Origin: Callorhinchus milii
Lineage: Eukaryota
NCBI RefSeq assembly: GCF_018977255.1
Contig: NW_024704743.1
Span: 25,236,001-25,300,000 of the forward strand
DNA: 64,000 nucleotides
Direction: 5' to 3'
This document shows, one piece after another, positions 2,352-36,300 of the stretch (the first letter of the stretch is position 1; each line of letters starts with the position of its first letter). The position numbers were made by a program, and so were the translations under genes. A model generated the notes under the pieces. The model did no database searches, was not told where the DNA came from, and was given only the letters and a program-made list of their open reading frames with translations.

Positions 2352-2435
2352 CATAAGTTTTTCAGCGATGTGTTTATTTTCAACATTTCTGCAAAACTTT
2401 TTGCTGCTTCATCGTCTAAATAATTTTGTGTCAAC
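2352..2435 (-). CDS. NOD1: NOD1-B LRR exon 6
   Basis: 84 nt, [28 protein letters not shown]. Confidence 0.9.
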
Positions 2436-8400: not shown

Positions 8401-11400
8401 GGTATGCGCCCCCTTCATGGGTGATCATGTTGGATCCCAGCCTGAATAGACATGGCAAATATGTTTAGGAACCTGTTATTCCTCGACCATTGCTCTAAAA
8501 CATCTTGAGATGCGTAATAAAATGTGAGTAAGTGACACAGAAGTGAATTACCTCAAGAAAACAAGACTGGGACAGCTTTCGACCAGCTGAGCGATGGCCC
8601 TGGCACCAACATCACTTAAATGATTTTTGTAAAGACTGAAAATAAGCGGACAGGTAATTAATCAAAACAAACTCAGTCTTAAACAAAAAAGGAACACGAG
8701 TATTAATGATGTGCCATTTTGAAAATCAATCTGATTTAGTTCCATTGAAGGGTTGAACTCATTGTACTCTTTGTACATAATAATAATTTGGTCACTCAAT
8801 CACCGACTGTTTGTGGGATACTGATGTGTGCAACAGCAACAAATTATATGTGTATAGCACCTTTCATGTCAGGAGAACATCCCAAGATGGAATTGGCTGC
8901 TGCATTTCACCCACAAAAATATACAGCCAGTTCACTTTACAATAGATTCTCCAAAGCACTTTGAAACATCTCAATGACTTGATAAGGCTCTATATTAAAT
9001 GCAAGGATTATCATTATTATTATTATTTATCTTTCAGATAGTGATTTACACGTTGTGTATGTCCAGAGGGTTTTTATTTAATATTAAACATGGATTTGTT
9101 TCATTTACCTTTGGAAGATCAATACAATACAATAGATGTTTTGCATGAGCAGAAACAATTAATGAAACATTAATAGAGACAGACTCCAAATAAATTAAGT
9201 TAGACATCTGGTGCAGGAACTCCTGTTAAATGATAAGAATTAAAATAGTGTAGTTGTAAATTTAAATCCCAGTCCAAGCCAACTATCTAACAATATCTGA
9301 ACAATGTTTTCTCTTGAAATGACTTTATTTAACTCGGTACATGAGGCATTCTATCAGGACAACTTGTGACACTAGGCAGGTGGCCTGCCTCTCCTGTGAA
9401 CCAGCTAAGGGCCAAAGCGCTGTCCAGCATTAATAGCAAGATGTGGAAGCGTTTGAAAATAGGGGTGTTTTGTTTGCAGGAAAGAAGGTAACACAGGGAG
9501 GAAACAATTACAACTTGCCTTTATTTAGTTTTTTAAAAAATAAACTTGTGATTACGTGAAGTGGGACAAAGTAGTTTGTTTTCTATTCCTGTACATTCCC
9601 ATGTTACAAGAGCTCTTAGGAACGGAAGTAGCAGATATCAGTCAAGTGTTGGGAAGAATTTTGGAGCACGATGAAACAAATATACCTTTGGAGATTTTTG
9701 AGAGCAGCAAGAGACAGGTCCCAAAGCAGTATCGACTTGGAAGTGAGTCTCAGAGAGCAAAGGCGTAGTGGCTAAAGGCTCAGGCAAAGGATAATGAGAA
9801 GTACACCGGATTCAAAAAGCAGAGAATATGGATTGGAGAAGTTTGGACAGGTAGGGTGGTGCAAGGGTATTAAAGAATTTGAGCACGAGAACAAAGGCAA
9901 ATAGTATTTCACATTTTACTATACATATAATAATGTAAAGCATTCTCACCCAAGTGACTTGATCTGATGATACTTTCTGAGTTCTTCTGCCAAGACACAG
10001 GCCCCATGGTCTGTGATCTGATTCACACTCAACCTGCATTAGAACATAGCAGTACCTAAATCAATAGTAATTTAGTATAGCTTCAGACAGATATGGACCA
10101 GTAGGTCCAACTAGTCTATCCATCCAATTTCCCCAAATATTGTTGAAAAATACAATTAGTTTATCAAATGCTATGAGGAACACAAGTTTCCTGTAATAGG
10201 CACAGACGGAAATGAAACAAACTTCAACCTGATATGTGAAAGCAGCCAAGTTGCACATTTTTTCTGGCTCTATATTTCATAGTTGATAGCTCCTGGATCT
10301 GGACACCATTAACAGCCAGGTATAGCCACCTGAACACCAAACTAAGCACTACAAGTTAATGTGAGAGGCAAGATTAATATTTGGTGGCAAAGCTTACCTG
10401 AGCACCGTAAGCTTACTGAAGGAGGGGAGCAGTTGTTCCACCCCGTAATCATTGATGTTGTTGTTGTCCATTTCCAATGCGATGGTGTTTGGGATATGAA
10501 GCAGAATGAATGTGAGAGCACTGCAGTCGGAGGAACAGATGTTGCAGTAGGTCAGCTTCATGTAAATGTTACATATTCCTCGGGCTGCAAGTTTGGCTAC
10601 AGCCTCGTTCTGCATTTCAAATATAAACCTGATCAGCCAGACAAAGCATGGCAGGATATGGATCTTGCAGCCATCCTCAAGATTTAATCGAGGGAGTCTC
10701 CTTATGTGCGATTTCACACAGTCATTAAGATAAGACGTCAATACTGAACGTTTCCCCTGAATAACTGTAGGACACGCCAGTTTCATTAACAGATTAATAT
10801 TACTGCTGGACAGGAGACCACAAAGGAACAGCTTGGTAAACCGAATGTGCTCACTGTGTGGCTTGGGGACATCTTTTGCGCCTTGCCTAACAGGGATTAA
10901 GCACTCAAAAAAAATAGTGCGGAGTTTCTTTGTAATTGAGCCGGTCACGTCACTATCATTAAATAACTTGAAGAGGCTCCTAGAGCTTATCTGATCATCC
11001 ACAGCTAATGAAAGTGCAGCAAAAAACGACTGCAGGGTCAAGTGAAGGAACTCATAGGTAGACTGGTTGCGAAGGCCATCATAATGGTCAGCAGCTTTGA
11101 TGAAACCCAATTGCAAGTCCTGCTCGGAGATCTCTGCTGCTGTGATTTGCTCCTGGTGGAAGAGAAAGTTGCTGTTTTCAATCCCATTTCGGGCTAATTT
11201 ACCCAGGTGCATCAAGGCACTCCTTTTTGTTCTGAACACATCTAGTTGGCTTCTGGCAGTTTTCCAATTCAAGTTCATTTTACAAGAATGATTAAGGAAG
11301 ACTTCTACCATTAGCAAGTAAACATCTGTCAGTGTGATATAGTCTGAGAGCTGGTGGGTGTTGGGCATGTTCAGAATGTGCTCATAAGATTTAAATATAA

Positions 11401-14400
11401 TCCAGCAGAAGAGTGGCACTGAACACAGGGTGCACAGGTGAGGGTTTGCTTCCAGCTGGGTCAAGACTGAACTTTGATAACTCTTGTTTTTGAAAAACTT
11501 CTTCAAATACTGCAGCAAATTGTCCTTCGAAAATCCTTTCAATACGACTTTCTTCCTCACGATTCTCAGCGGCAGAATTGTGCCAGTTCTGGCTGTCAAT
11601 ACCTTTTTAGAACCTTTTAATAATTTTCCTCGGAGAAGGTTCATCAACAAGGCCACAGGGTGAGTGGGGACAAAGGGCGAGGAAATGTCAGGGATGTCGT
11701 TCACGTCACAGTCAATGTTAATCTCATCAAACCCATCCAGTGTGAAGAGAACAGTCTCTGGATGTTGACAGATATATCTGAAGATTTCATCCACGTCTCG
11801 GTCAGGGTAACAGTTGTACTTGAAGAGCAAATCCTTGAGTGAAATCTTGTCTTCCTCCTTAAAGCTATTAAATATCCGGCACCTGAATTTGAAGAAGAAT
11901 TTGACATCAGCACACAGCTCTCCTTTGGACCACAAGCTCTGCAGTTTCTGAAGCAGAATAGATTTACCAACCCCAGCGTCACCGGTTACAATCACCGTTT
12001 CTGCCTCTTCACTGATGACTCCAAACACACTGAATAATTCATCCAAACAGGATACCATTCCTTTGGGTTCATTGACATTGTTGATTAATTCCATCAGAGT
12101 CTCCGTGTATGTATCTTCAAACAAGGTGTCCTGCTTTTGGGCATATGATGAAATGAACTTTGAGTCTCTTCCCAGTTCATGTCTGAGCTTTTCGGTGTAC
12201 TGGCAAACTGAAGCACACAAGCACTACATTAATAAAATATTTTGGACAATATAGTTTTAGAGAGTAAAATTTTTATTACTCTCCATGTTCCATAAGCATT
12301 ACATAAACACATCAGTTTTGGTGTTATAAACAGAGTTGGCGATTGAAGTGAACTTTCTTAAATTTGAGAAAAAAATATGGAATGATTTGTCATACAGCAT
12401 TAATCACGACTGTTTGTGGGACACTACTGTGCGCAATTGGGTTCCGCATTTAACCCACAAAACATACAGTCAATTCACTTTACAGTATATTCTGTGAAGC
12501 GCTTTGAGATGTTTAGAAAACATGCTAAAATGCTATATTAAACGCAAGGATTATTATTATGATTATTATCATCAATTTGAGCAATGCATTTCGAGCCTCC
12601 TGAGCTCAGCCCTTAGGTAAGCATTTATTATTTATCATTCTCTAAAGAGATCCCAAAATAATCCAAAGAAGTTTGATACAATGCAGTTTGTCTCTGCTTA
12701 ATACATAACTGAGCTCAGGAGGCTCGAAATACATTGCTTGAATTGATAATAATAATAATAATCCTTGCGTTTGATATAGCGCCTTATCAGATCTTTGAGA
12801 CGTCTCAAAGCGCTTCACAGAATATATTGTAAATTGAATTAACTGTATATTTTTGTGGACGAAACACAGCAGCCAATTGCGCACAGCAGTGTCCCACAAA
12901 AAGTCGTGGATTGAGTGACCAATTTTTTTTGAAGGAATTATTCCCTCAATAGTGTTTGGGTCATTCATAGCAACAACAACAACAAAATTACATTTATAGA
13001 GCGCCTTTCACGTTGGGAGGATGTCCCAAAGCGCTGAACAGTCAGGTGTTCGGGCCCGAGCATGAGGACTGGTGGTGTAGGGGTGAGGGAAGGCAGAGAG
13101 GTGGGAGGCAGACCAAAGGCACAGTCGAAGAGAAGGGTCTTGAGACCGGCCTTGAAGGAGGCAAGGGAGTAAGCGAGGCGAAGGGACCGTAGGATGGAGT
13201 TCCAGAGTGTAGGGGCAGAGAGGCTGAAACCCGACCACCGGGCGGGAGACATGGAGCAGGCCGGAGCCCGCTGAACGGAGGGAGCGGGCAGGTTGGTAGG
13301 GAGTCAGCAGGTCAGAGAGGTAGGAGGGGGCAAGGCCATGGATGGCCTTAAAGGTGAGGACGAGGATTTTGAACTCGATCCTCTGGGGAAAGGGGAGCCA
13401 GTGGAGTCGGGTGAGGGTGGGAGTGATGGGGTCACGGAGCCCGGTGTGTGTGAGTGCACGAGCTGCAGAGTTTTGGATGATCTGCAGCTTGTGAAGGGAA
13501 GAGTTGGGAAGGCCGCTGTGGAGGGACTTCCCGTAATCATGCCTTGATGTGACGAATGCATGGGTGAGGGTTTTGGCAGCCTGAGGGGTGAGGCAGTGAC
13601 GGAGTCTGGCAATATTGTGGAGGTGGTGGTAGGCAGTGCCGGTCATGGCGCGGACGTGGGGGAGAAAGGACAGTTCAGGATCAAACAAGATACCCAGGTT
13701 CCTGACTGGCAACCAAGAATAAAAGTGAGCCACCTCTTTGTGTTGATCACTGGCTAAATAATCTCCATAATTGATCAGACCATGTTAAACATATTCGATT
13801 GATTCTAGTTAAATTCATGTGGATCTCAAAATATTTCATTTAACGCTTGTGCCAAATATATCAAACTGATCTCTCACCAGCATCCGTAATAAGCACTGAT
13901 TTCTTCAGCAAGAAATCCGATGGGCAATAATGAATCTCTTCCAACCAAGGCTCCAGGTTTGAGTAAACATCTTTTGCACGATACATGATGTATATAAAGT
14001 ACTCTGCAGTCTCTTCTCCTTTACCTGATATAATATCCAGTATTTTACGATTCTAAAATAAATAGTGAGACGCATTAGCTTTAAGGTGACTACATTATTT
14101 TGTGCATTAACAGTTGTGTCAGTAAAGGAGAGATAGAGCAGAACTTACTGAGATGACTATTTGCATGAAGTATAACTGACAGCTTTTTAGCCCACTCATT
14201 GCATCGATCCAACCTTGAGGTACCTCTCTGTGCTAATACATCATTGTCTAGCCTCTGACAGATACTATTTGGCTGTAAAACATCAATCCAGGAAATCAGC
14301 AACATTTGGGGGACTGGTGCCCAATGATGCATCCAGTGGTGTCAATCTTCCACCTCCAGACCTCAAAGCAATCATCTCAATTGCAGTACTGCAAGGCCTG

Positions 14401-15619
14401 TGGGTTCCAGTCCCACATTGAGACTTGAGCTCCCAGTATGGTGACAACACAATCCTTAAATTTGATATAGCATCTTTCACGTCAGTAGATGCCTCAAAAA
14501 GTTTCATTTACTAAGATGTAATAATAAGAATACACATCCAACAATGCACCCACCCGCCCCCCAGTACTACACTGGAGTGTTGGCTTAAACTATATGAGTT
14601 CCAAGGTCCCACACACAGCTCTGACACTTCCAAATCTGATTTCTCTTTTCTTCTCCATCTCCGTCCTGCCTCTCGTTGCTCAATTCTAGTGTAGAATCGT
14701 TCTCCAGCAATTCCTCCCACCTCTCATTCGTTTCCCCTTCCTCCCAACTGGGTCCTCAACTGATTTGCTTCGTGACCCCTGCCCTATCAACAAGGGGGTG
14801 GCAGGTTTTCAGCCATTCTAGCCCTGCTCTCTGGAATTCCACCTCAGTGTCCCTCCCACTCAGTGGCCCTGGTTCACCTTCAAGGTCTGTGTCAAAACAT
14901 CGCTGCTTGACCATGCTTCGCTCATTTTTAGCCTCTCTCCCCTCCCCATTGGCTCCCACCCCCGGTTTGGATGCCTCGCTGGCATATCAAGTGGTTTGAG
15001 ACGTCTTCCTGACATGAAAAGCGCTGTGCGTGTGTAAATTGTACAGTGTTGTAACTACAGTCTCCGCCCCACTTCCTTCTCAGATATTTGTACACTTGTG
15101 CAGTGAACGGTTTGCCATCTTGTGACAGACTATCTGTCATCGCTGTACAAGCTGAAAATAATCATGACAATCACTCAAATTGTGAAGCAAAAACAGAAGC
15201 TAACCCAGTGACATCAAGCATTGCTTGAAACTTGCTCCAGTCAAATTCAGTCCTTCTTCTGCATTGTACCACTATCATTTACAGTGAACACGAAGACACT
15301 CCAGCAACTCACCCGAAAAGCTAACCTAACTCTCTCAGACGTTTGTAATATCAATTACCAGATCTGTGGAGAAAAATCACCTGGTCATCTAAAGGACTCC
15401 TAAGAGTCGACACTTGTCCTTTGCTACCTGTACCTTTCCATGTTGAGTTGCAGTCTGTTGAATAACTTCAGTATCTTCAAGTGTAAAATGGCCAGCCTGC
15501 AGCAGGTTATCCAGCAAGCATTCAGTGTTTTTAATGCCATTCACTAATTCCACCCGATGCGACCTCAGGAGATCGAGGTAAGAGGGACTCTTGTGTCTCG
15601 GAGTTGCTAGTTGCTCCAT
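2352..15619 (-). CDS. NOD1: NOD1-B, tandem NOD1 paralogue, 3'-incomplete in window; exons 15434-15619, 13878-14052, 10398-12207, 9950-10033, 8552-8635, 8358-8441, 7154-7237, 3835-3918, 2352-2435
   Basis: Same exon sizes and phases as NOD1-A, Kozak-like gtcaccATGg, uninterrupted frame through nine exons, intact Walker A and B. LRR7 and the terminal exon were not found in the window. Confidence 0.9.
3835..3918 (-). CDS. NOD1: NOD1-B LRR exon 5
   Basis: 84 nt, [28 protein letters not shown]. Confidence 0.9.
5057..5347. repeat. Perfect 143-bp tandem duplication within a SINE
   Basis: 5057-5199 = 5200-5342, bounded by aataa microhomology. Confidence 0.9.
6707..7083 (+). mobile_element. tRNA-derived SINE, long subfamily
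   Basis: Contains the extra tgtttacctagcagtaagtaggaacc segment; further copies at about 3442-3785(+), 28160-28465(+), 52995-53322(+). Confidence 0.82.
7154..7237 (-). CDS. NOD1: NOD1-B LRR exon 4
   Basis: 84 nt, [28 protein letters not shown]. Confidence 0.9.
8358..8441 (-). CDS. NOD1: NOD1-B LRR exon 3
   Basis: 84 nt, [28 protein letters not shown]. Confidence 0.9.
8552..8635 (-). CDS. NOD1: NOD1-B LRR exon 2
   Basis: 84 nt, [28 protein letters not shown]. Confidence 0.9.
9950..10033 (-). CDS. NOD1: NOD1-B LRR exon 1
   Basis: 84 nt, [28 protein letters not shown]. Confidence 0.9.
10398..12207 (-). CDS. NOD1: NOD1-B NACHT/HD1/WHD/HD2 exon
   Basis: Lies within ORF 10394..12220; 1810 nt, phase 1 to phase 2, ends SKLTVLR|gtaagc. 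Confidence 0.95.
12968..13710 (-). mobile_element. L2-clade LINE 3' fragment
   Basis: [42 protein letters not shown]; (TTG)n tail. Confidence 0.9.
13878..14052 (-). CDS. NOD1: NOD1-B coding exon 2 (CARD C-half)
   Basis: 175 nt, [58 protein letters not shown]. Confidence 0.9.
15434..15619 (-). CDS. NOD1: NOD1-B coding exon 1 (CARD N-half)
   Basis: [62 protein letters not shown]|gtaca; likely acceptor at 15660-15661. Confidence 0.88.
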
Positions 15620-16875
15620 GGTGACTCCCCGTGGAGGTAGAAGTAAAAAGTCAATTTTCCTAAAGAAGCAAATATCATCCAGTTTAATGTGGGACTATTG
15701 GTAATAAGAATTACTAGTGTTATTTTTTGACACAATTTGGATCATCCTGTTTGTAGAGTTTGATAAACAAAATTAATTTCAATGAGACAGAGCTGCATTC
15801 ATTTCCTTTTCTGTTTGTATCTCTGTCATTAGGCACTGAACTAAAAGGTAAAGCATGTAAGAACATGAAAAGAGGCTATTCAGCCTACTGAAGCACACCC
15901 TTTGATCTGCAAATGGACCTTTGTGCCGGGAAGATTAAAAGCATTAGGAACTACAGTGACAATCTCCTGTCTGACAAGAGAGAGAGTTCAGTTTGTACTG
16001 TACCTGTCTGGATCCACAAGTTCCTGCCTGCCTACTTCACGTCCTCAAGGTGTCTCCTCCTTTGAGATCATTTTACTTTCATTGAATCCTCAGGGTCCGC
16101 AGGCCTGTGCTGAGTGTCAGCTGTTTATCAGTAACACCGGGGGCAGGAACTTCTCAGGTAATTCGGTTGCGATATGTTTTCAGGAATCAGTCCCCAGCTT
16201 GTTCCTCTTCACCGTGAAGTTAGTGACTGCATTGATTTCCCCAAACCCTACCTCTTCCCTAAAACAACGTCACCTCTTCAGTCAAACAGGATGCAAGAGG
16301 CTACTTTGTGTTGCTCATATCAAACTTCTTGCGAAACATTTAACTGGCAGTTGCTGCAGACTGTCACCTAAGAAGTTTCTGAAGCAGAATGGTTTTACTA
16401 ACCTCAGGGTCACCGGTTCTGCTTCTTTTAGTTTGCTCAGTGCATTAAACGTGTTATGCCGTTCACACTGAATGACTAGCCAACGCAGCATAATGTAGTC
16501 ATACACTTCTTAAATAACAATCTATAGTTATTTGCTAAGAGTATCACCCAGTCAGTATTGAGCGCAAAAAAAACAATTAGAATAGTTCTCCTGCATGAAC
16601 AAGGAAAAGGTTAGGCTAGTAAAACATGATATGAAACATCTTAACTATTTGCTATGAAGGGCAAGGGGATAGACACAACCAAGGGCAATTTACACACCTA
16701 TCTACAGAAACCAGAGCCACCATACTGGGTTAACAGAAGGGGTAAAATGAACTCCTTAGGGGCTGAAATACTATTTATACATCAAAGCTAAAAGGAAATT
16801 AAATTCTGATTTGTTTCAGAGTATGTCACTCGTGGGGGAACAATTGATTTTTTTGTACTTTTTTGCTCTTCATAC

Positions 16876-17035
16876 ATTGCTATGTTGGGTGACATTCATC
16901 TTTGAATGTGAAATACTGTAGCAGGTTATCCACGGAGCAGTCAGTGTTTTAATTCCGATCACCAACTCCATCTGATGTGACCTGAGGTGACGAGGTTGAG
17001 ATGAGAGGCTCTGTTGTCTTCCCACCTGTCCACAT
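16876..17035 (-). pseudogene. Degenerate duplicate of the NOD1-B CARD exon 1
   Basis: Aligns to 15434-15619 (e.g. gcaggttatccacggagcagtcagtgttttaattcc vs gcaggttatccagcaagcattcagtgtttttaatgcc) with 1-bp frameshifts and deletions; GT donor retained at the homologous position. Confidence 0.8.
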
Positions 17036-17407
17036 TCAATTTCATCATGTTCTTTCTCTGTGCAACTAATTACATTAAATCTCCAGCTCCAAAACAAGCC
17101 ATTCTGCCCATCTAATTTGTTCTGGTATTGTTACTCACCATCCTAATCTTCCTTTCCTCGCCTCCTCCTTCCCATACCCATCTAATCCCTTCTCCCTCAT
17201 TACCTTATGGCAGAGTAAGCAGTTAGCTCTTCCTGCACTTTTGGAAACAGTGTCATGATGCGTAATCTCAAACATTGACCAACAAATCAAATTTTACCAA
17301 ACGGCTAATGCAAACTATTTACACTCTTTTCTTCCTTAAGTTGTCAAAGACTTCCTCAATGTGTTTTGCCACCAGCTCTTCAGTGACTTTTAATTTTCTC
17401 AACACGA

Positions 17408-21277: not shown

Positions 21278-21347
21278 TCAGAGCACAATTCTTGTGTCAT
21301 TCTCAAACGATTTGGCTTCTTCTGCGGATATGTTGTTGCCATTCAAG
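21278..21347 (-). CDS. NOD1: NOD1-A terminal coding exon
   Basis: [22 protein letters not shown]; candidate AATAAA on the minus strand at 21137-21142. Confidence 0.88.
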
Positions 21348-24300
21348 CTGAATTGGAAAGGACACACAATGAAGAGGTGAAGGGTTATCCATAAAACCAT
21401 AGCAAATATTGCATGATATGTCTATCAACCAAACTCAGAGAAAGACCCAGAGCAAAGGAACAAGGGAGGGAGAGGTGACCGCAGATGCAGTCAAAGAGAT
21501 AAGATGTTTAGGCAGGTTTCAAAGACAAGATTGAGAAGGAGCGAGACGGAGAGGTAGAGCGAGGGAGTTCCAAAGATTGGGGGCATAGTTGCTGAAATAA
21601 GAACGTAAAAGCTGAATAATTCAGAATCATAGAATTATACAGCACAGAAGGAGGCCTTTTGGCCCATCTTGTCTGTGCCGACTCTTTGAAAGGAGCTATC
21701 CAAATCATTCCCACTCCCCCGCTCTCTCCCCATATCCTTGCAAACTTGTCCTCCCCAAATAATTATCTACTTCCCTCTTAAAAGTCGTTATCGAATCGGC
21801 TTCCACCACCATTTCAGGCAATGCATTCCAGATCCAAACAACTCGGAAATAAAACACGACAGAGTGGAAATTCACCACAGGGTGATGAGCATTTGAAGAG
21901 ACATGTTTATAGATGCAGGGTCCCTGATGAAGGATCACAACCGCAAATGTTAATCACTCTTTCTCTATCAGGCACTGATTGATTCCCCTCCCTTCTCCTT
22001 GCATTTCCTGTAACGCAGCAAATATCTAAATATTTAACTTCCACTATTGCCAGTTGTACTGGCTCAATCCCCATGTAGAAATTGGCAGTGCTCGCTAAGA
22101 GTTTTATGATTGTTAGGTTAAGGCCGTGCATTGCCTCTTTGCTGAGACTCATTTTCAACAGAAAATACTCCAGACGCTTGATGTCAAGGTGACAGTAGTA
22201 TATTGGTGCTTTAACATGCTGTGTGTTAAGTGATTACTACCATTTATTAATTGCAATCCCCCACATCAGATATTTTAGTCTAAATCCTGTCTTCATAAGA
22301 ACAATTCCAACCTCATCTCCCCTAAGGTGAGTATGCAAGTCAGATCAGGCTGCTCCCTCACATCTACCAATTAGTCGGCTCCCAACAACACTGGCAGTAG
22401 CCTACAACAGTGAGCCTGCTGTCCTGTTGCAGGGAAGTAAGTTTCAGACACATCAAGGAGCAGAACAAGAGGGTTGCAAGGCCAATTTCAGGGCAGATTC
22501 ACCTGGAAGTATATATTTACGGCTGGAATGATTTTCCAGGAATGGTGGTTGAGCCCAGGATGTTTGACTTATTTAAGAAACCACTTGTTACTGCAATGGG
22601 AGGACAGTATGCTAGGTCTAATGGAAGTAATCAAACAGGCCTTTTTCATCCAAACTTCTCTTGTGATCTCGTGTGACGTATGGTATAGAGAAACTCAAGA
22701 GAAGTAAATGCTCATAAACAGAATGGAGATAGTTAAGCCATTATTCCCAAGTCAAATAGACATATCCTTACCAGATCTCTTCTATGAATGTGTTTTCTTT
22801 GAGTACATCACTGAAATACTTGGCTCCAAGCGCTGTAATTTTATTATTTATCAGCCTGCAAATAAGAAATATATTTGAGTGTTGTGAATAGAAAAAAAGG
22901 TTTCATTCCTGGATATGCTGAAGGGTGGCTTTGTGTCTTAATTGTTTGAGGAGCCTACACCAAGAGATACTGGATTGTGTATCCTGTAATAAACAGGGGT
23001 GTCTTCACTCCAGCAATTCCCCACGTGTCAAATGTTTTAAGCTCAATCATATCTTCAGCGTAAGGTTACCATCTCCCTTCAGAGAGGATGAGAATACTGG
23101 GAGGAATAATTAATCCAACTGCTCCTTCACATCTATTAGCAACAAGATGGTGTTTAGAGAGCATCTGGAGAGTAGAGTTCAATGGCAAGTCAGATTTTCT
23201 CCTCGTCAGCCTCACTAGTTTCACTCTCCAGAAGCTTCAACTCATTCAATACTTTGTAGCTTGGGTTTTCTCTCACACAAAACTCTCCACACTGTCCTTG
23301 CCAAGCTCCATTGGCTCTCAGTTCCACAGCAGATTGAGTTTAAGACCTTTTTCCTCGTTTTAAAATCTAAGCATAGTCTCACCACTCGCTGCCTATACAG
23401 TCTTCTTCAGCCCTAAATTCCAGTCTATATCTTCCATTCTTTCAATTGGTTTACATTAATTCACTCTCCATTTCCTTACCACTTTCCTCACCTCCTCTTT
23501 CCGCACCTGGTTTCAAAACAGTCCTAAACACATAGCTCATTAATCCTATCTTCTGCTGACATTCTTAAATCTATTATGTACCTGACGTGTGCATTTATCA
23601 AGTGTGAGATGCTCTTATGTGCAAATTGCTGTTTCTCTACTTTTAACCTATACAAACTCGCAAACTGTAAGTGGAAATCATAGCATTAAATCACATCCGG
23701 CTTAAATAACATCAAAATGCACAAGAGCAACGCTTTAGTGAAGACCCCTTCAGTGTGGTGAGCTCTGCAGCTGTCTCCTAGTTCTGAGTCACCTGAAGGC
23801 ATTGATTTGTCCTGTTTTAAGGTAAATTGCAGGCACTGTTCCAAATTGGTTTGGAAAGTTACGACTCAGCAAATGTTTTGCTCAGGTGCATGTTTCCCTG
23901 AGTGTGCATGCACCACACTTCAGGAAGCAAGGAAAACTGTAAAATTATACCCTGCCAATTTTTTTTATCTTAAAGAGCTAAAGAAACCAGAATTATAAAA
24001 ATTTCCCTTTTTTCACCTCATTACTGAAGTATTAACTTCCACAAACAACAACAACAACAAGATTCCATTTATAAAGCGCCTTTCACGTCAGGAGGACGTC
24101 CCAAGGCGCTGCACAGTTGGGTCATGACCCGAGCAGGGGGGAAATGGTCAGGGTGAGGGGAGGGAAGGGAGGGAGCGAGGAGGGGGGAAATGGTCAGGGT
24201 GAGGGGAGGGAAGGGAGGGAGCGAGGAGGGGGAAGAGAGTCGAGAGGGGAGCTGAAGGCTCGGTCAAAGAGAAGACAAACACCAGGGGGCCTCGGGCACC

Positions 24301-27300
24301 TTGCGTAGTGTTCATTTGTCCTTTGCACTGAATCTCAACCCCTGAATCCCCTCCGCCGTGTCAGAGATGGAGCTCGTGAATTCACCTGTGAGACAAGTGC
24401 TTTTTTGTAATAATAATCCTTGCATTTGGTATAGCACCTTATCACGTCTTTGATACGTCTCAAAGCACTTCACAGAATATACTGCATAGGGAATTAACTG
24501 TATATTTTGTGGGTGAAACACGGCAGCCAAGTGTGAAGAGCAGTGTCCCACAAACAATTGCCAACTGAGTGACCAAATTATTTTTAATTATTTTAAAGGA
24601 ATTACTACCCCTTGGAAAAGTGATCTCCCAATCGACAAACAACTGGGTTCCTATTTACTGCTAGGTAAACAGAGGCGTGTGGAGTAAGGAAACTTGCCCA
24701 TTGTTTTGCACTGCCGGGAATCAAACCCAGGTCTCTCGCTTGCGAAGTGAGTGCTCTAACCACTGAGCTACAGGACTCACTCCACAGCACAGCCACTGGA
24801 GAGCAAATTAACCATGCTCCACCTCCCTATTAATTCAACTCCCTCTCATGTTGATGGCCGACCATCCCTCAGGGTAGCTCCTCCAATTATCACCATCAGT
24901 ACAGTACAAACAGGCCAGGGGAATGCTTAGTTACACTCACTCTTCCAAGATACTGGTATGTAATTATCAAAGCAGTGAGAAATCTAGTCCAAGCCATTGG
25001 ATTTATAATAGTAATGATTTAATAATAATTTGGTCACTCAATTCATGACTATGAGTGGGACACTGCTGTTTGACTGCCGTGTTTCACCACAAAATAAACA
25101 GTCAATTTACTTTACAGTATATTCTGTGAAGTGCTTTGAGACGTCTCAATGATGTGATAAGGCACTATAGCAAAATGCAAGGATTATTATTATGAAGGAA
25201 GATTTATACATGAGACACTGTACAAAAACTTTTATATTAACAATAATATATTCTGTGAAGCGCTTTGTGATGTCTCGAAGATGTGATAAGGCACTACATC
25301 AAATGCAAGGATTATTATATAATCACTCCGAGACGGGCACTGTATAAATCCAAGTTACAAAATAATAATAATGCAAGTTATATAATATCAGGGGTGGAGC
25401 TTGATGCCGAACCAGGGAGAGAGGGCTCATAACCGTGCAAAACACACAATGCTTTTATTTTAAACCCACAGGACTACTTACCATAAATGACGCAGACTTC
25501 TGTTTACTTTAAGCATCACTGCCATTCTCTCTGCCGCTTCATCATTCAGCTGGTTTTCTGTCATCCTATTTCATAAAGAATATTAAAGATTCTCTATATC
25601 GCCATTTTCCATTTTCCAATCATAATTAAATACAGTTGTATATTCCCTCCCCCCTCCCTTCGCCTCTCCCCCATACCCACTTGAAATAGGGAGTGACTAG
25701 CAGGTTAAACCTAACAAGAGCTATTTACAAACTGGAAAAGCCCTGGGCACAGCTCCAATAGTGCATTAAATCCTTACCAAAATATCTGAAGGCAGTTATT
25801 CTGTTCCAGTGCTGCAGCTAAGATTTTCCCTCCATCTGCAGAAATGTCATTGCCTGCAAGGCTGGATAAAGAACATCGATGTTGTTACCTCGTAGAAATG
25901 ATACCTTTTGGATAAGACATATCAAGCATGATACTTGAGCACGACCTGATTTGTGACCCTGCCCTCATGAACCAAGTCTCTATATTCGTGGAGTCCTGTG
26001 GCTCAGTGGTTAGAGCACTCGCTTTGCAAGCGAGAGACCTGAGTTCAATTCCAGGCAGAGGGCGAAACCTTGGGCAAGTTTCCTTACTCCACACGCCTAA
26101 TAATAATCCCTCCAAAAAAAAATAATAATAAATTGGTCATTTTCAATCTACGACTGTTTGTGGGACATTGCTGTGCACAATTGGCTGCCGCGTTCGCCCA
26201 CAAATATACAGTCAATTTACTTTACAGTGTGTTCTGTGAAGTGCTTTGGGACGTCCTCCCGACGTGAAAAGCGCTATATCAAATGCAAGGATTATTATTA
26301 TTATAGTCGGAACTGTTCTATAACTGGCCATCTTTAGAAATTGGTAAGGAAGTGGTTCATGAAGACAGGGTTACATACCAGATTAGTCCATGAAGTTAGA
26401 ATTGACCTCCTGTCAGGAAATCACCTCCAGGAAATGTTACTTGAGAGGAATGAGCTGGATTCTCCCTCCTCTCTTCAGTGGGCTATTCTGCATGAGGTTC
26501 CATCTACTGGTACCTCAGTCGTGAATGCGAGAAGAGGGAACTAGACTTGAACATGACTAATTGCTTACTGTGGGACTTAAGGGAAATATAATTCAGAGTT
26601 CACCCTTTTTGATCTATATCCAGTGATCCCTGGGATTTGTGAATATCAGAATTGGGCTAAATTTCAATTCTCCTTCCCTCTCGAGTCAGGAGTTTGTGAG
26701 TTCAAGACTCATTTTGGGTCGTGGAAAACTCCCTTCTCTTTTGAAAGAGCAACAATCCAGTGCATAGCTGGGTGTGTGCTGCATTGTTCGAGCTACCGTG
26801 TTTTTGATGAGACGTTAAACGGGGGTCCATCTGCCTGTTCAGGTGGATGACAAAGATCTCATGGTACTATTTCAAAAGAGAAAGGAGTTTCTCCCAGTGT
26901 TCAGGCCAGCAATGTTGTTTGATAAATTTGGTCATTGACTTCGTGTCTGTTTGAGCGACATTGCTGTGCGCAAATTGGCTGATGCTTTTGCTCACAAAAG
27001 TCATTCTGTTTTACAATATATCCTGTGAAGTGTTTTGGGACGTCCTCCCGATCTGAAATGCGCTATAACAAATATCAGGATTATTATTATTAATATTATA
27101 TGTCCCAGCCCCTTGTGAGGCAAAGTTCTAATGGATAGGGCGCTCCTTTATTTGGATGAACGTGAGTTGATGCGCTGTTACGATTATGTCGTCAGTACTG
27201 GAAAGAATGTACATACCTCAGCTCATATAAAGCGGGATGGTGTCGCAAAGCTTCAGCAAAGGCGACTGCTCCCGGGTCCCCAATCTTGTTGCCCCACATC

Positions 27301-30300
27301 CTGTCAATCAATTCCAGGGATTTATCAAGTCACAAGACATGCAAACAAGGCCGGATGTACAGTGTGTAAATTCAAAGAGAAAAAACACATGACCGATAGT
27401 GCTCATTTCCCTTTCAAGAGAGAGCTGTTTTAGGCTTTTATTGTTGACATATGTCTGTCTGTATACCATTTAAATGAAGTTTGGACCGGAGTTTCTAAAT
27501 GAGTATTGCCAATAGGAGAAGTAAAAATTTGTGCTGAACTTTAAAGGAACAATAAAACTTAATTGGAATGAAAATACCGTAACAAATATATGAAGACCCT
27601 TTTCTATACTCACCCTATATCCCTGAAAGCCTTGTTTTTCTGAATTGCTTGTGCCAGTAATATCCCTCCTTTACTTGTAAGCTTGTTGAGTCCAATTCTA
27701 CAATAAAAATTGGGTAAAACTTTACAAAATGGAGTTTAAAAAAGTTTCTGAATATTATACTATTACAAATATTGTAACCCTTTCTGTTAAAAAAAACTTT
27801 TTTTTAAAGTCACCAGGTATCCGACATATGTGAAAATCCATCACTATGCTTGAGAGGTGCCAAACCAGAGGGGTTCTGCATATATATACCTTTATATACA
27901 TAAAATATTCTCTGTGCTTGAAATGGAATGTGCACTCAGTCTCTGGAAAACACACCGTGCTTACAACACAAATTTAGATGGCACCCTTCAAGTCAGAGGT
28001 CATCCAGGGCCCTTAAGAGTACTGGTTGGACTCCAGAGCTGGGTGCAGAAGCTCTTGAGGGTGGGAGGAGATGTCAGAAATAGTTGTCAAAGAGGTAGTT
28101 CTTGAGACCTTGAACAAGATGAGAAAAGGATCTAATGACTTAATTATTAACAAAGAGTTGGGCAAGTTTCCTTACTCCATACGCTGTTGTTTACCTAGCA
28201 GTAAGTAGAATCTGGTAGTTAGTCGATTGGCAGATCGTTTTTCCGGGGTTAATAAATCTTTCTAAGAAAAAATAATAATTTGGTCACTTAATCCACGACT
28301 GTTTGTGGGACACTGCTGTGCGCAATTGGCTGCCAAGTTTTGCCCACAAAATATATAGTCAATTCACTTTACAGTATATTCTGTGAAGCACTTTGAGATG
28401 TCTCGAAGACGTGATAAGGCGCTGTATCAAATCCAAGGACTATTATTATTTTATTTATTATTATTAGGTATAAATTGTCAAAAGCCATGGCATGGCTTGG
28501 GAACCCAGAATGTGGATTGGGAGGTTACTGCTGCAATTTAAACAGATAAAATAACATAGCTTGTCATTGCTGTTTTAACTTGTATTGTAAACAGCTTGTT
28601 TGGGAGTTTTGTTAAATGCAGTTTGATTTGATTTATTTCATGCTAAACATATGGGTGATACAGAGATGCCAAATATTTGTTATCAGTAAAAACTCTTCTT
28701 ACTTTAAAGTTCTAAGACTTGAACATTCTTCAACCACTCTGGCAATGTACTGGGCACCGACATCAGTGATCTGATTCCTGTACAGACTAAAGTGAAAACA
28801 TGTCTCATTTAGCAATAAAGAAAATGAATAAGTTATAGACTGATTGTGATTCTCATACAAACAGTTTGAAAATCTTCGGTCCTTTAGTAGTCAATAAGTT
28901 TGCAAAGTAAGTTTAAAAGTATTTAAATACAAACTTATTGACTTGCAAAGCCAATAAGTTTGCAAAAATGTCAGAACCATAACATTTAATATGACTTACA
29001 TAAAGTCCAAGTTGCAGGCAAACTTGGGTAAATCGTATAAAATCTGATTTAATCAATAATCTAGACTGCACACGCATAATTCAATGCAGCCGGTAAGTGT
29101 GAATGCGGTATTTTGTCACTGCTCATGCGGTGACAAGTCAAGACTATGTTTCCTGCAATTCAACGGCCTTGACCCGACCCTATGTGCACTTGCCGGCTGC
29201 ATTGCATTCACAGGAGATAAAGTTTTTCCATGCATGGGTGGAATCAAGACTACATTTCTCGTGATTCATCGCAGCCGGCTGATAAGCGCAAATGCGTCAA
29301 TGAGCCAGAGCGTCGTTTCCTGCAATCCAATGCAGTAAGTGCGGGATCAATGGAGGCCAGGGGAGAGAGCGGCCTTACGAGTTATGAGGTGAATGATATG
29401 AGCAATGCAAAGAAATTTAAGTGGTTTTGATAGGAAACTGAATGGAACTCGGGTGCATATGTGGCTTAGGTGATTATACAATTTATAAAGCTAAGACTTA
29501 TGCGAGCTTAACTGTCCAAGCAGTGCACAACTTGGTTGTGCATTATGTATTCAAATAAGGTTCCGCAAAATCTGGGAATTAAAAATGTTCTTTATACTTG
29601 ATGAAAAGAATTAAGAGATTCACATGGCCTGAGGTTAGCTGTTGTGACACTTGGGATACGCACAAAGCATGGGCTGATAAGTGTATGCTTAGGTTCCAAA
29701 GGGTAAGACTTCTGCTTGGTAACATCTACTGCAAGAGGCAATTGTGTTGAATGTTCAGAACAGAAATTAGAATGAACCTCACCAGCTTTCACTGGAATTC
29801 ATTGCTTGAATCTAGTAATCCTGCAATATGCAGCAATATTCTTCAAGTCCAAAATTCATTAATCAAAGTAGGTACAATTCAAAGAATATAAAATTAACAA
29901 ATGGTTATGTAGAGCATTAATCTATTTATAAACACAATTTGAAGTTTATCCTTCGGATGAGATGTTAAATTGAAGCCCGGTCTGCTCGTTCGGATGGATG
30001 TTAAAGATCCCATGGCGCTATTCAAAAAGAGAAAGGAGTTTCGCGCAGAATCCTGGCCAACAACGCTCCAATAAAATTGGTCACTCACTTGATGACTGCT
30101 TGTGGGACATTGGCTGTGCGCAACTTGTCTGCCGCATTTGTCCACAAAATATAGTCACTGCACTTTACAGTATATCTTATGAAGTTTGGGACATCCTCCT
30201 GACGTGAAAGTCGCTCTACCAAATGTAATGATTATTATTATTTAGGTTTATGCTTACCCAAGAAATTTTATAATTTTGTACTTTGTAAGTTCGTCAGCCA

Positions 30301-33300
30301 GTACTTTCGCTCCATCATCTGTGACCTGGTTTACACTCAACCTGCATTTAAAAACAATGCACATTTGAATGGCTTACGGCAGGTTTACAGCAGATATAAG
30401 ATTCTTTTAAATTATATATGAAGCTATGGTAGTATTGATATTAATGCCATGTTAATTCATCACGACACTGACATTCAGTTTGCTAACCTTTTGAGGAAGT
30501 GCAAAAAATTACGCGCATTCACCACAACTAAATGAGCTAAATTTCTGACTTGTAAATTGCTTTGCTCAGTATCTGTTTTTAAGCTTGTCCCATGAAATCA
30601 AATGAAAAAAATGGGGTAGGCAACACTGGTCATTAAAGTTACTTATAATAGAAACTTCACTAACCAGTGTAATTTTAGCACCTGGAAATGTAGTAGAGTA
30701 TGCAAGCTTAATTCTTTGTACTTTATTTGTGGGAGAGAGGAGATAAAGGAGTCTTCATGGGGTTGAAAGAGGCTCCGAGGACACGTCTGGAGTAATTGAA
30801 TGGTCCATCAATGAGTTATGGAAGTGTAGTGCAGTACACCAAAGCCCAAATGGCTAATGCAATCCTTAGCTTGATACGTATTGTTAAATTTACCTGTGCT
30901 TCAAGCTCTGCATTAAATTATTATTTATTATTATGTCTCAGTGTACATGGGACATTTGGTGTGAAAGAATGTACAACAAAACAATGTTGCACTTCTTGGA
31001 AATAATAATCCAGTTTAATGGAGAGATGGGTAGGTTTGCACTTTGACAGTGCTTTCCAACAGATGAAATTCAACCTGAATTATGTTTCCTTCACAGAGGA
31101 GACTCCATCTGTTCCACTGTTTACTGTTCCACTGTTTGTGGAGCCCTGTAGCTCAGTGATTAGATCACTTGCCTCGCAAGCGAGAGACCTGGGTTCAATT
31201 CCCAGCAGAGCGAAATGTTGGGCAAGTTTCTTTACTCCACATGCTTCTGTTTACCTAGCAGTAAGCAGGAACCCAGTTGTTAGTCGAATTGGTGGATCGC
31301 TTTTCCAGAGGTAATAATTCCTTCCAATAAAATAATAATAAATTGGTCACTGAATTCATGACTGTTTGTGGAACACTGCTGTGCAAAATTGGCTGCTACG
31401 TTTCGCCCACAAAATATACAGTCAATTCACTTTATAGTATATTCTGTGAAACGCTTTGAGAAGTCTCGAAGATGTGATAAGGCACTATATCAAATGCAAA
31501 GATTGTTATTATTAGAATGGTTTCAAAAAATATACCTTTCCAACACACCTACAATCCAACACTTAAACCTTCATTTAGCATTAAATATCTTTCACATCTT
31601 TCAACATAGGTAAATATATCTTCTATTCCTTTAACATATGCAAAACAAGTTTTGTAAATTTCTAAATGAAATTAAGTGAAAAGAATAACAGAAATATTTT
31701 TTGTTTCTGAAAAGACTCAAACTCTTAAAATCAAACAATATCACTTACATTGAATGCATTTATTTTCACTTTTGTTAGGGACAAGGTTTTTAATATCCAT
31801 GTCCATTGGCCAGAAATTTCTCTTGCTGCTAACTAGCATTCATGACATTGTGCACTTCTAAGGTGATTTTCCAATTACAAACCCACATTTGAACCTCCTT
31901 TTATAATGCAAAGGGTTTATTTTCTGAAGTTCCGTTTGCTAACGGAGAGGAGTGAGAGGAATTATATTTGAAGCAGAGAAGAATGAACGAACTTTCTACA
32001 GGATTATTTTACATAGGAAATTTAAGATTAAGTTGTTTATTCCCACAAAATAACTCGATATTACATCTTTGTTGTGGCTAGAATGAATAAGACATTAACT
32101 AAGGCTGCTTTCCATAACCACAGCTTGTGATGTGTTTTTTTGTGATGTTTGGGCCTCTCCAAACCGCAGAGCAAATTGAACCAGATTGGAATTGGGATGG
32201 GGGTTAGTGTGGACTTATGTTAAGTAAAGAGGCGAGGACCACTGACCCTGACCACTTGGACGCAGTTTGTCAGTTGGGAACACTCATGGATTCATACAGT
32301 ACAAGTTGCATTTAAACCAGCGATGGATCTTCTTCACAAAAGCATGTAAAATGAAATTTACCTGACCACGGTGAGCTTACTGAAACAGGGGATTAGTTCT
32401 TTCACTCCATAGTCGTTGATGTTGTTGTTGTCTAGTTCAAGCGCAATTTGCTCTTTGCGGTGTTGTAAAATGTTTGCAACAGCGCTGCAGTCAGCAGAAC
32501 AGGCGTTGCAGAAGGTCAATTTTAAGTAGTCGGCACAAATCCCCTTGGCTGCAAGCTTGGCAACTTCTTCACTCTGCGTTTCAAATATGTATCTCATCAA
32601 CCATACAAATTGAGGCAGAGCCTGCACTCTGCTATACTCTTCCAGCTGTGATCGGGGAAGAGACTTTAAGTGTGATCTGACCTCTTTGGCCAGGTAAGAC
32701 TTCAGTGCTAACCTCTTCTTCTGGATTATTCCTGCAGGAGCCAAATGTTTGAAGACATCTCGGTTACTTTTTGACACCAGGCCACAAAGGAAAAGAACAG
32801 TGAACTGATAGTGCTCAGTGCTTTCAAAAGGATCTTTTTTCTGATTCCTGTTGGAGCCCAGGCATTGTAACGCAAAGACACTTCCTTTTTCCTCAATCCT
32901 GTACTTATCACGTTCGGCAAAAAAATTTATCATTTCCTTTACGCTGATTTCATCATCTATGACTAAACAGAAAGCAGTGAAAAATGACTGCAGGGTCAAG
33001 TGAAGGAACTCATAAGTGGTTTGGTTCCCAAGACCATCGTAATGGCCAGCAGCTTTGATGAAACCCAATTGCAAGTCCTGCTCAGAGATATCTGCTTCTG
33101 TGATTTGCTCCTGGTTGAAGAGAAAGTTTCTGTTTTCGATTCCCTCTTTTGCTAGTTTTCCAAATCGCATTAGACTGTCCCTTCTCATTCTGAACGTCTC
33201 AGTTGGACTTTTGTTTCTTCTGTTCAATGTTACCTTTGAGGAGCGATTCAGGAAAACCTCCAGCATCAGTAGGTAAACATCGGTCAGTGTGATATAGTCT

Positions 33301-36300
33301 GAAAGCTGGTAGGTGTCGGGCATGTTCAGAATGTGCTCATAGCATTTAAATATAATCCAGCAGAAGAGTGGCACTGAACACAGGGTGCACAGGTGAGGGT
33401 TTGCTTCCAGCTGGGTCAAGACTGAACTTTGATAATTCTTGTTTTTGAAAAACTTCTTCAAATACTGCAGCAAATTGTCCTTCGAAAATCCTTTCAATAC
33501 GACTTTCTTCCTCACGATTCTCAGCGGCAGAATTGTGCCAGTTCTGGCTGTCAATACCTTTTTAGAACCTTTTAATAATTTTCCTCGGAGAAGGTTCATC
33601 AACAAGGCCACAGGGTGAGTGGGGACAAAGGGCGAGGAAATGTCAGGGATGTCGTTCACGTCACAGTCAATGTTAATCTCATCAAACCCATCCAGTGTGA
33701 AGAGGACAGACTCAGCATGTTGACAGATATATCTGAAGATTTCATCCACGTCTCGGTCAGGGTAACAGTTGTACTTGAAGAGCAAATCCTTGAGTGAAAT
33801 CTTGTCTTCCTCCTTAAAGCTATTAAATATTCGGCACCTGAATTTGAAGAAGAATTTGACATCAGCACACAGCTCTCCTTTGGACCACAAGCTCTGCAGT
33901 TTCTGAAGCAGAATAGATTTACCAACCCCAGCGTCACCGGTTACAATCACCGTTTCTGACTCTTCACTGATAACTCCAAACGCACTGAATAATTCATCCA
34001 AACAGGACAGCATTCCTTTGGGTTCATTGACATTGTTGATTAATTCCATCAGTGTCTCCGTGTATGTATCTTCAAACAAGGTGTCCTGCTTTTGGGCATA
34101 TGAAGTGACATATGTTGTATCTTGTTGAAGATCAAGCTTCATCTTTCGAATGTACTGAAAGACTAGGCACAAGAAAAGCAATCAAAGTTATGGTCTCAAT
34201 TGGAGTCAGATATAAGATAGTCATAGAATCATAGAATTATGCAGCACAGAAGGAGGCCATTCGGCCCATCATGTCTGTGCCGGCTTCCCACTTTTCCGTT
34301 TCTCCTCATAGCCCTGCAAACTTATTCTCCCCAAATAATGATCTACTTCTCTCTTAAAAATTGTTACCGAATCGGCTTCCATCACTTGGAAATTGTACTC
34401 CCTATACCCAAGTCCAGGTCATTTATATAGATCAAGAACAGCAGTGGTTCCAATACTGATCCCTGGGAAACTGCACACTTCCCTCCAGTCAGAAAAACAA
34501 CTGTCCACCACCACACTCTGCTTTCTGTCTCCCAGGCAGTTCGGTATCCATGCTGCCACTGTCCATTTAATACCGTGGGCTTCTATTTTGCTTACAAGTC
34601 TCTTATGTGGCACTTTATCAAACGCCTTTTGAAAATCCATATAAACTACATCAACTGCACCACCTTCATCCACCCTCTCCGTTGCTTCATCAAAAAAACT
34701 CTTATCAGGTTTGTTAGACATGAATTGCCTTGAAAAAAATCTGTGCTGAGTGTCCTTTATTAACACATATTTTCTAAGTGAAAATTTATTTTGTCCCACA
34801 TTATAGTCTCTAGAAGTTTACCTCTGGCACCACCCGGTGTCCAAGTAGGATTGAAAGATTGTGGCCAGATCCTTTGTTCTTTCCACCCTTACTTCCCTGA
34901 GTAACCTAGTCTGGACCGGATGACTTATGTACCTTGAGCACTGCCAACCTTTTTAGTACATCCTCTCGGTTTATTCTTATCTTGTCCAATTTCTCTACCC
35001 TCTCCTGCCATACTGTGGCATAGGCTGCATCCTCTTCTTTTGTGAAGACAGATGCAAAGTACTCATTCAATACATCAGCTATGCCTTCTGCCACCACAAG
35101 AAGATTTCCTCTTTGGTCCCTAATTGGACCCATCCTACCTTTTATTCTTTATATACTTACAAAATACCGAGGGTTCCCTTTTATGTTACCCACTAATCTT
35201 TTTTCATACTTTGCCCCTCTTATTTCGGTTTTCAGTTCTCTGTACTTTTTATATTTTATTTGATTATCTTCTATATTTTGGACCTGACATTTATCATAAG
35301 CCTCCTTTTTCTGTTTTATTTTAATCCCAATTTCCTTATTCATTCAGGGAGGTTTGGATGCCCTACCCATCCCCTTTGTGGGAATGTATTTGTTCTGACC
35401 CCAAACTATCTCCTCCTTGAAGGCTTCCCATTGCTTGTTAGCTGTTTTACCTGCCAATCTTTCTTTCCAGTCCACCTTGGCTAGGTCTCTTTTTAACTTA
35501 TTGAAATTAGTCCTCTTCCAGTTGAGTATCTTCACCTTTGATTGTTCTTTGTCCCTTTCCAAAGTACTATAAACCTAATGATGTTGTGATCGCTGTTGTC
35601 TAGGTGTTCTCCTACTGAAACCTGCTCCACTTGCCCCACTTCTTTCCCCATAACTAGATCAGCACTGCTTCCTTCCTCGTTGGGCTGGAAACATACTGAT
35701 CCAGAAAGTTATCCTGCAAACATTTCAGGAATCCTTCCCCTTCCTTGCCCTTTACACTGTTACTTTGTCAGTCTATGTTAGGACAATTGAAGTCCTCGAT
35801 TATCACTACTCTGTAGTCGGGAGCGGAGGTAGGAGAGCGCGGGGCGGAGCCGAGGCTTAGCCATGTATATAAAGCACAGCCAGGTGAGGAGCCGCTCAGT
35901 CGGGAGTGGAGGTAGGAGCTGAGGTAAGTGAGGGGGTGGGGCAGGCGCGTTTCACAAAGTGATGTCGGCTTGACGTCACAGTTAATAAAAAAGTTTTTTA
36001 AAAAAAAAAACCAGCAACAACAGTAACAATGGCCTGGCAGCCACTGCCACTCGGCCATGACCTGGGAGGCTAAGCCTGCGGGCTGATGCCGTCTTGCTGA
36101 TCGCTCGCTCCCGGTCACTACGTGCGCATTTTGGCTGCCGCCCCGACCCGAGCCTGCCCCTGAATGTCTCTCCTCCCATCCCCCTCTATGTCTCTCCTCC
36201 CATCCCCTTCTATGTCTCTCCTCCCAACCCCCTCTATCCGCTACTGCCCCTCTGTCCTTCTCTCTCAGCGCCCTCACTGCCTTCTCTCTCTCCTCGACCC

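Follow-up and report, generated by a model that had tools for sequence, protein, structure and literature searches.

Recurrent gene conversion bounded to the ATPase core of tandem NOD1 receptors in cartilaginous fishes

Introduction

Why should two neighbouring receptor genes whose signalling and sensing ends have diverged deeply share a nearly identical ATPase core? The question is raised by the NOD1-A/NOD1-C tandem pair of the elephant shark (Callorhinchus milii), located in the stretch of 64,000 nucleotides analysed here (the window, to which all coordinates refer). According to the text of Tan et al. 2021 (PMC8455134), three NOD1 copies arose by tandem duplication in the ancestor shared by cartilaginous fishes, and in the elephant shark A and C are adjacent and B has apparently been lost; different ligand specificity was also proposed there. 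The genes are the same as those described here: the A, B and C labels were matched to that study through the copy absent in the elephant shark and the whale shark copy located on a separate contig, and the gene named “NOD1-B” in a first-pass annotation of the window is its NOD1-C.

The shared tract in the elephant shark pair

The two genes and the stretches of their third coding exons that are relevant here are the following.

21278..43081, minus strand: NOD1-A, 11 coding exons, 937 aa, with Pfam domains in the order CARD-NACHT-WHD-HD2-LRR; coding exons 43081-42902, 40846-40672, 34162-32362, 30341-30258, 28786-28703, 27697-27614, 27300-27217, 25861-25778, 25565-25482, 22855-22772 and 21347-21278
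2352..15619, minus strand: NOD1-C, 9 coding exons within the window, the end of the last one taken from its GT; coding exons 15619-15434, 14052-13878, 12207-10398, 10033-9950, 8635-8552, 8441-8358, 7237-7154, 3918-3835 and 2435-2352
33344..34103, minus strand: main conversion tract in exon 3 of NOD1-A (residues 139-391), grading out to ~33282
11389..12148, minus strand: main conversion tract in exon 3 of NOD1-C, grading out to ~11327
33138..33281 (A) and 11180..11326 (C), minus strand: unconverted island at the start of the WHD (A residues 413-460), with a one-codon indel
32985..33137, minus strand: weaker patch of older conversion in NOD1-A, within the winged-helix domain (residues 461-511, dS 0.30)
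11027..11179, minus strand: matching winged-helix patch of NOD1-C (dS 0.30, with fourfold-degenerate sites as given below)

The spliced translation of NOD1-A is identical to P0121 (XP_007887856.2) at 937/937 residues, and that of NOD1-C to the first 892/892 residues of P0125 (XP_042188096.1, 942 aa), of which the last ~50 residues gave no tblastn match within the window. Both proteins are annotated as Callorhinchus milii NOD1, carry the Pfam domains CARD, NACHT, NOD2_WH, NLRC4_HD2 and LRR, and are 53-59% identical to bony vertebrate NOD1. All named homologues among the 120 listed of 598 matches are NOD1, NOD1-like or hypothetical proteins.

Both copies of the main tract lie within the long third coding exon of these minus-strand, NOD1-type genes, and align without gaps at an offset of 21955, with exactly 12 differences over 760 bp and a longest identical run of 268 bp. 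Ten codons differ, six of them in the encoded amino acid (A residues 170, 179, 187, 268, 270 and 361). The first-pass annotation, made by hand, had given the same length, offset, lack of gaps and number of differences, a perfect run of about 268 bp and six amino acid differences, all of which the recount reproduces. Its proposal that synonymous sites are homogenised as well also holds: fourfold-degenerate sites differ at 4/88 positions inside the tract versus 72/115 outside (Fisher p=2e-19), and the Nei-Gojobori synonymous divergence (dS) is 0.043 in the tract (for a bin, residues 138-390, placed one codon off the true tract) and 1.1-2.1 or saturated elsewhere. In CARD exon 2, 35/57 aligned residues are identical between A and C (the earlier count was 35/58), and in the six LRR exons common to both genes 99/168, as first counted.

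The 5′ edge of the tract at 12148/34103 is as sharp as originally described. The 3′ edge is gradual, extending over ~60 bp to ~11327/33282 with a proportion of synonymous differences (pS) of 0.19. It is followed by the island, 144 bp of saturated sequence between converted stretches (pS 0.82; 7/8 fourfold sites differing), and then by the winged-helix patch, in which 4/14 fourfold sites differ (p=0.02 versus outside). Outside the exons, each blastn match between A and C falls in sequence that is present 2-25 times in the window; since these matches are all multi-copy repeats, unique intron similarity between A and C is absent, in agreement with the introns having been called dissimilar. The GC content at third codon positions is 0.53 in the tract and 0.46-0.48 outside, figures which, compared without a formal test, indicate no clear GC bias. 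A common short repeat is present as two inverted copies at 12400-12930, ~250 bp upstream of the C tract; that this pair might form a hairpin near the tract boundary is speculative.

Recurrence across chimaera, sharks and rays

In order to place the elephant shark pair in its class, 23 A, 11 B (among them P0015, P0016, P0017, P0021 and P0024) and 22 C proteins of 23 chondrichthyan species, 56 in all with a single isoform for each gene, were aligned together with 7 bony vertebrate NOD1s; they were taken from the homologue search mentioned above and from two cluster look-ups of 20 proteins. In 43/43 within-species paralogue pairs, identity of the core (here A residues 139-400) was more than 15 points above that of HD2 and LRR, with ranges of 79-100% for the core, 34-49% for HD2, 52-71% for LRR and 36-69% for CARD.

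Domain-partitioned trees, suggested in the first-pass annotation, tell the same story. They were built from 30 of the 56 proteins and 3 outgroups, with Mobula hypostoma used for the core and M. birostris for all other partitions, and without NOD2, which was included in the trees of Tan 2021. The core tree, the bootstrap of which is not fully settled, mixes the paralogues: 17 label changes are needed, and the two elephant shark copies are joined at 100/100. The approximately unbiased (AU) test, applied to this tree, rejects monophyly of A (p=1e-82) and of C (p=1.6e-5) and does not reject that of B (p=0.074). The CARD, HD2 and LRR trees, obtained by quick searches, group by paralogue with the minimum of 2 label changes; elephant shark NOD1-C clusters with elasmobranch C in the HD2 and LRR trees, both of which reject a clade made up of the elephant shark A and C (HD2 p=2.6e-5; LRR p=7.5e-5). 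In the WHD tree C forms one group and A and B pair by species, with an elephant shark A+C clade neither supported nor rejected (p=0.54).

The elephant shark pair was also combined into quartets with 21 elasmobranch A/C pairs, one at a time; these quartets have rows in common and are not independent. They gave 774/0/0 sites grouping by species, by paralogue and in the third pattern for NBD-HD1, compared to 18/198/15 for CARD, 28/230/14 for HD2 and 39/539/13 for LRR. Columns setting both elephant shark copies apart from all three elasmobranch paralogues number 18 in the core and none in CARD, HD2 or LRR. At several of these 18 (S201T, K206R, K243R, K338R) the outgroups (7/7) share the elephant shark state, from which it follows that in elasmobranchs new substitutions spread through all three paralogues. 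Columns diagnostic of paralogue are accordingly few in the core: for A versus C there are 2/274 in the core, 10/118 in CARD, 13/140 in HD2 and 30/277 in LRR, and for A versus B 0/382 across core and WHD. Both A and C of the elephant shark are C-type at F148 and S406, which offers no more than a hint on the direction of conversion.

The Holocephali-Elasmobranchii split has been dated at 421 Ma (PMC3692497, in the text consulted), and on this date conversion has been running for ~421 My. It is, in our view, practically certain that interlocus conversion has been recurrent and bounded across chimaera, sharks and rays. The earlier reading of an old duplication with domain-restricted conversion is thus upheld, and its description of the conversion as recent is to be replaced, as the pattern recurs throughout the class.

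The process is not uniform. A/C core identity is only 79-83% in the carpet sharks (5/5 species), and two carpet shark C rows form a clade of their own in the core tree (100/99); this drift of carpet shark C shows that near-identity of the cores is not required everywhere. At the other extreme, the A/B cores of two sharks are identical. Within their own lineage, skates and several pairs of closely related species group by paralogue, and after a recent split the nearest sequence is often still the orthologue; because close relatives often pair by orthologue, conversion is episodic. NOD1-B itself looks mosaic, as it falls with C in a CARD clade (99) and sits with A in HD2 (90) and WHD.

Tract ends and subdomain boundaries

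The ends of the tracts were located by change-point fits for each paralogue pair. For A/C the 3′ end has a median at residue 398, with 16/22 ends at 395-418, one at 382 and those of the five carpet sharks at 358-359; for B/C the median is 397. For A/B the end lies at 526-532 in 11/11 cases, and A/B conversion spans residues 413-460, which C leaves unconverted. Domain boundaries were mapped by alignment to rabbit NOD2 (5irm), using those given in the text of PMC4906405 (NOD1 structures found in the PDB search comprised the CARD only). The HD1/WHD boundary maps to A 402-406 and the WHD/HD2 boundary to A 525, and the 760-bp tract corresponds to the NBD, less its first 19 residues, plus HD1. The tract had at first been described as NBD-HD1-WHD, an assignment that this mapping corrects. 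Activation of NLRs has been described as a rotation of NBD-HD1 against WHD-HD2-LRR (PMC4906405, PMC9520476, parts consulted). Tracts in pairs with C mostly stop at the HD1/WHD hinge and A/B tracts at the WHD/HD2 boundary, and thus C exchanges the NBD-HD1 rigid body, whereas A and B exchange NBD-HD1-WHD.

Why the core is shared

The explanation that we favour, by a modest degree, is that the core is interchangeable and that selection acts against conversions which overwrite what is specific to each paralogue, the latter being our proposal for why the tracts are bounded. A tandem triplication of NOD1 (A, B, C) preceded the chimaera/elasmobranch split at ~421 Ma, and the repeated conversion documented above, confined to one long exon, has since then copied the ATP-binding NBD-HD1 among the copies. 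If NBD-HD1 is interchangeable among the receptors, converted alleles would be tolerated or mildly favoured. Conversions overwriting CARD, HD2, LRR and, for C, the start of the WHD would presumably have been selected against, and these parts may by now be too diverged to convert. The outcome would be two or three receptors with a common engine and distinct sensor surfaces, whose CARDs all keep the acidic residues that, judging from human NOD1, probably bind RIPK2.

The functional residues can be read along the same lines. Walker A, Walker B and sensor 1 are intact in both elephant shark copies (TAR in each). The autoinhibition contacts mapped from NOD2 are kept (R325, E503 and H506 in 56/56 proteins, R229 in 54/56), with the implication that core swaps would be safe. 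In the CARD, the acidic residues E53/D54/E56 of human NOD1, which serve RIPK2 signalling according to the text of PMC3791470, correspond to E46/D47/E49 in the elephant shark A and C alike (human numbering was matched through the EDAE motif), and every aligned A, B and C row has E/D at all three positions. For the iE-DAP pocket the same source lists K790, G792, D/E816, G818, W820 and W874, which were located with a +15 offset derived from the residue spacing therein. The pocket of A is canonical and that of elephant shark C near canonical, with R at K790 and the others kept. In shark B 3/6 conserved residues are replaced: K790 by T/A in 11/11, E816 mostly by H, and G818 by W in 11/11.

Several points weigh against this explanation. 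Both tract ends also fall within loops that are variable in single-copy NOD1, and with variable loops there conversion would halt at these ends without selection. The LRR exons measure 84 bp and the CARD exons ~180 bp, and are likely too short for conversion whatever selection does. Half of the C copies do not keep the H569 contact (H 11, S 9, N 2). Outside the elephant shark and two of the public runs the evidence consists of protein sequences, dS being limited to the elephant shark pair.

A possible alternative, though a rather doubtful one, is that conversion has been positively maintained because A, B and C must co-assemble, an activated one drawing in the others via matching NBD-HD1 surfaces to form a mixed ring, either as sensor and helper or as a signal-integrating nodosome. 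Tandem NLR paralogues with distinct sensors can indeed act via NACHT-NACHT hetero-oligomers, as in the NAIP/NLRC4 inflammasome. Unlike in that system, all three NOD1 copies, as known here from sequence, have a CARD and none resembles the CARD-less sensor; all keep CARD and LRR, and a sensor/helper division with domain loss is not seen. Such a ring would fit with the C tract being the rigid body that rotates on activation (PMC4906405, PMC9520476, same parts), with homogenisation of the same region over ~421 My in three lineages, and with a similar multimer argument made for zebrafish NLR groups in the text of Howe 2016 (PMC4852459). In addition, 10/11 of the modelled protomer-interface residues of NOD2 map inside the elephant shark tract, a weak point since all 11 are NBD residues. 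Against it stand the escape of carpet shark C, with its lower identity and own clade, the episodic nature of conversion, with skates and close pairs grouping by paralogue, and position L148F, which maps to the NOD2 interface residue L228 and remains paralogue-specific in elasmobranchs (L in 22/23 A, F in 21/22 C). A complex prediction of A(120-530) with C(122-533) and ATP, run twice without alignments, scored 0.00 both times, which is not evidence either way. In its fullest form, which we hold to be a tentative and rather improbable model, A, B and C would sense different ligands, NBD-HD1 would have been kept identical for ~420 My so that one receptor could recruit the others to a RIPK2 platform, and the tract ends would mark real NOD1 hinges.

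It is unlikely that the pattern is purely passive, that is, that the first half of the exon stayed convertible and the remainder escaped early by chance, with boundaries set by variable loops or indels. The shortness of the other exons and the variable loops at the boundaries, noted above, are what this would predict, and the episodic timing, the loss of conversion in carpet shark C and the slow substitution rates of chondrichthyans (PMC3692497, in the text consulted) also agree with it. However, in bony-vertebrate single-copy NOD1 the distance is 0.45 for the core, 0.34 for the LRR and 0.36 for residues 631-719 of the same exon, and this equally conserved stretch is unconverted (pS 0.59 for residues 661-719 in the elephant shark pair). 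Moreover, the saturated 144-bp island separates converted stretches, a divergence peak of the kind regarded as a sign of selection in the text of Fawcett and Innan (PMC3924837), and the boundaries are pair-specific and stable over hundreds of My. Selection is therefore favoured over a passive process, given a core no more conserved than the LRR, a conserved exon stretch left unconverted and a saturated island. The core-to-LRR rate ratio (0.82-0.94 in chondrichthyans, 1.35 in bony vertebrates) was dropped as evidence, because it reverses for A when compared with the LRR part of exon 3 (1.66).

An assembly or polishing artefact, in which the reads of one copy overwrote the other, is largely refuted and highly improbable. 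Four public runs were placed as contigs on window positions 10250-12400. In runs X1 and X3 (organism A), a C-specific contig spans 12056-12400 with 0 differences and crosses the 12148 junction, and C-type (0-1 differences) and A-type (13 differences) contigs both reach 30 letters into the tract (11389-11418); as contigs of two public runs bridge both ends, the tract is not an assembly artefact. Between these ends, the same runs show a single collapsed contig over 11389-12003 and a two-path bubble over 11974-12085. Run X20 (organism B) has a contig over 11412-12124 that differs from the window at 48 positions, and a loose end exactly at 12148 there matches the flank of the A copy at 29/30 letters. 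In run X17 the contigs over 11572-12030 diverge by 6-9% from the window and have a depth of 10.6, versus 5.5-6.6 for most neighbouring pieces. The patterns of X20 and X17 fit homogenisation inside two related genomes, bearing in mind that contig depth does not equal copy number and that small bubbles are collapsed. The recurrence of the signal in 23 species with graded identities also speaks against an artefact. On the other side, the identical A/B cores of two sharks could be partly artefactual, and the tract itself is not the same in all versions of the locus: at residues 268 and 270 (window 11750-11761 and 33705-33716), where C of the window has P and T, six older NOD1-C entries in the databases are A-type. 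These versions could represent a conversion allele that is segregating or else the collapse of the copies in an older assembly, the contigs collapsing small bubbles so that phase is not readable.

Strong purifying selection on the ATPase, for which the many invariant residues of the NBD might speak, and a recent duplication with fast divergence elsewhere are already refuted by synonymous sites that are homogenised inside the tract and saturated outside and by the CARD, HD2 and LRR trees, where each elephant shark copy falls with the orthologues from sharks and rays.

As a separate observation on run X20, its C-type contigs have a depth of ~160-190 versus 24 for the A-type contig, and contain frame-breaking gaps of 8 nt at 11056 and of 1 nt at 11327, 11332, 11984 and 12081; the species concerned may carry an amplified, decayed NOD1-C.

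Relation to known systems

NOD1 family membership and the duplication have been published. As far as our searches reach, it is new that these genes convert, that conversion has recurred across the whole class for ~420 My, and that the tract ends differ by pair and lie at subdomain boundaries. The words “conversion” and “recombination” occur 0 times in the main text of Tan 2021 (PMC8455134) and “gene conversion” 0 times in its supplements, figures excepted, of which Figure 2-supplement 2 may show aligned cores; the text parts examined describe neither the homogenised cores and tract boundaries nor the relic of a third copy presented below. No report of conversion in NOD1 was found in the literature searched, which covers few subscription journals.

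The closest parallels are found in other innate receptors. TLR1 and TLR6 are likewise tandem innate receptors, in which, according to the text of Kruithof et al. 2007 (PMC2077338), ~300 aa are homogenised independently per lineage with conserved boundaries, and the ligand-binding LRRs remain paralogue-specific. The NOD1 case differs in involving a mid-protein NLR ATPase module, three paralogues, pair-specific boundaries at hinges and lineages that split ~421 Ma. In the zebrafish NLR-B30.2 genes the NACHT is also homogenised by conversion apart from the sensor domain, and compatibility in multimers has been proposed (Howe et al. 2016, PMC4852459, in the text consulted); these are ~400 genes with fast turnover, converting within NACHT groups. 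In NOD1, by contrast, the orthologous lineages are stable and number two or three, conversion crosses between paralogues of distinct function, and the exchanged units are resolved below the level of the NACHT.

The NOD1 genes of cartilaginous fishes can be regarded as a domain-swap experiment that nature has repeated throughout one class of vertebrates. This experiment would define NBD-HD1, plus the WHD between A and B, as the interchangeable NOD1 module, with HD2-LRR having to evolve together with the sensor. Since the boundaries match the rigid bodies of NLR activation, autoinhibition and oligomerisation of NOD1 are directly testable by A/B/C chimeras. The predicted NOD1-B proteins are without residues that human NOD1 needs for iE-DAP, suggesting that they are NOD1-type receptors of a different ligand. 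In practical terms, NACHT-based trees, the usual route of NLR classification, will give these genes wrong dates and wrong assignments, and the copies cannot be distinguished by primers or short reads that lie in the core.

Remains of a third copy and other features of the window

Two short decayed fragments of a third NOD1 copy are present between A and C.

16916..17019, minus strand: decayed CARD exon-1 fragment with frameshifts
16374..16418, minus strand: decayed Walker A fragment of the same copy (40/45 nt)

The CARD fragment is 75% identical to exon 1 of NOD1-C over 106 columns (E=6e-15), with a score of 79 versus a maximum of 32 in 20 shuffles, and exon 1 of NOD1-A is unmatched; the Walker A fragment scores 65 versus a maximum of 31 in 20 shuffles. 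Only ~500 bp separate the two. The Walker A fragment, whose flanks are loose ends in run X1, is GKT-like as in elasmobranchs, whereas the intact elephant shark copies and 7/7 outgroups have GKS. When exon 3 of A was aligned locally, with permissive settings, to the sequence between A and C, the score of 149 was below the shuffled maximum of 167, and for this reason only these two fragments are claimed. The relic sits at the place of B in sharks, as consecutive accession numbers suggest, and is probably the lost NOD1-B. Among the 9 ray and skate species of the protein set no B-type protein turned up, although no specific search was made, which suggests that B may have been lost a second time, in rays and skates.

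An intron of NOD1-C contains a perfect 148-bp tandem duplication (5057-5204 and 5200-5347; window 5057-5347). Decayed fragments of LINE-type reverse transcriptases are located at 92-1490, 34419-34907 and 36853-39469, with RVT_1 confirmed only for 520-1137. Finally, the NOD1 pair is adjoined by a long last exon at 61268-63766 (minus strand) with AAA_12, a cysteine-rich region and an RZ-type zinc finger; it belongs to what we take to be a ZNFX1-type gene, another innate immune gene.

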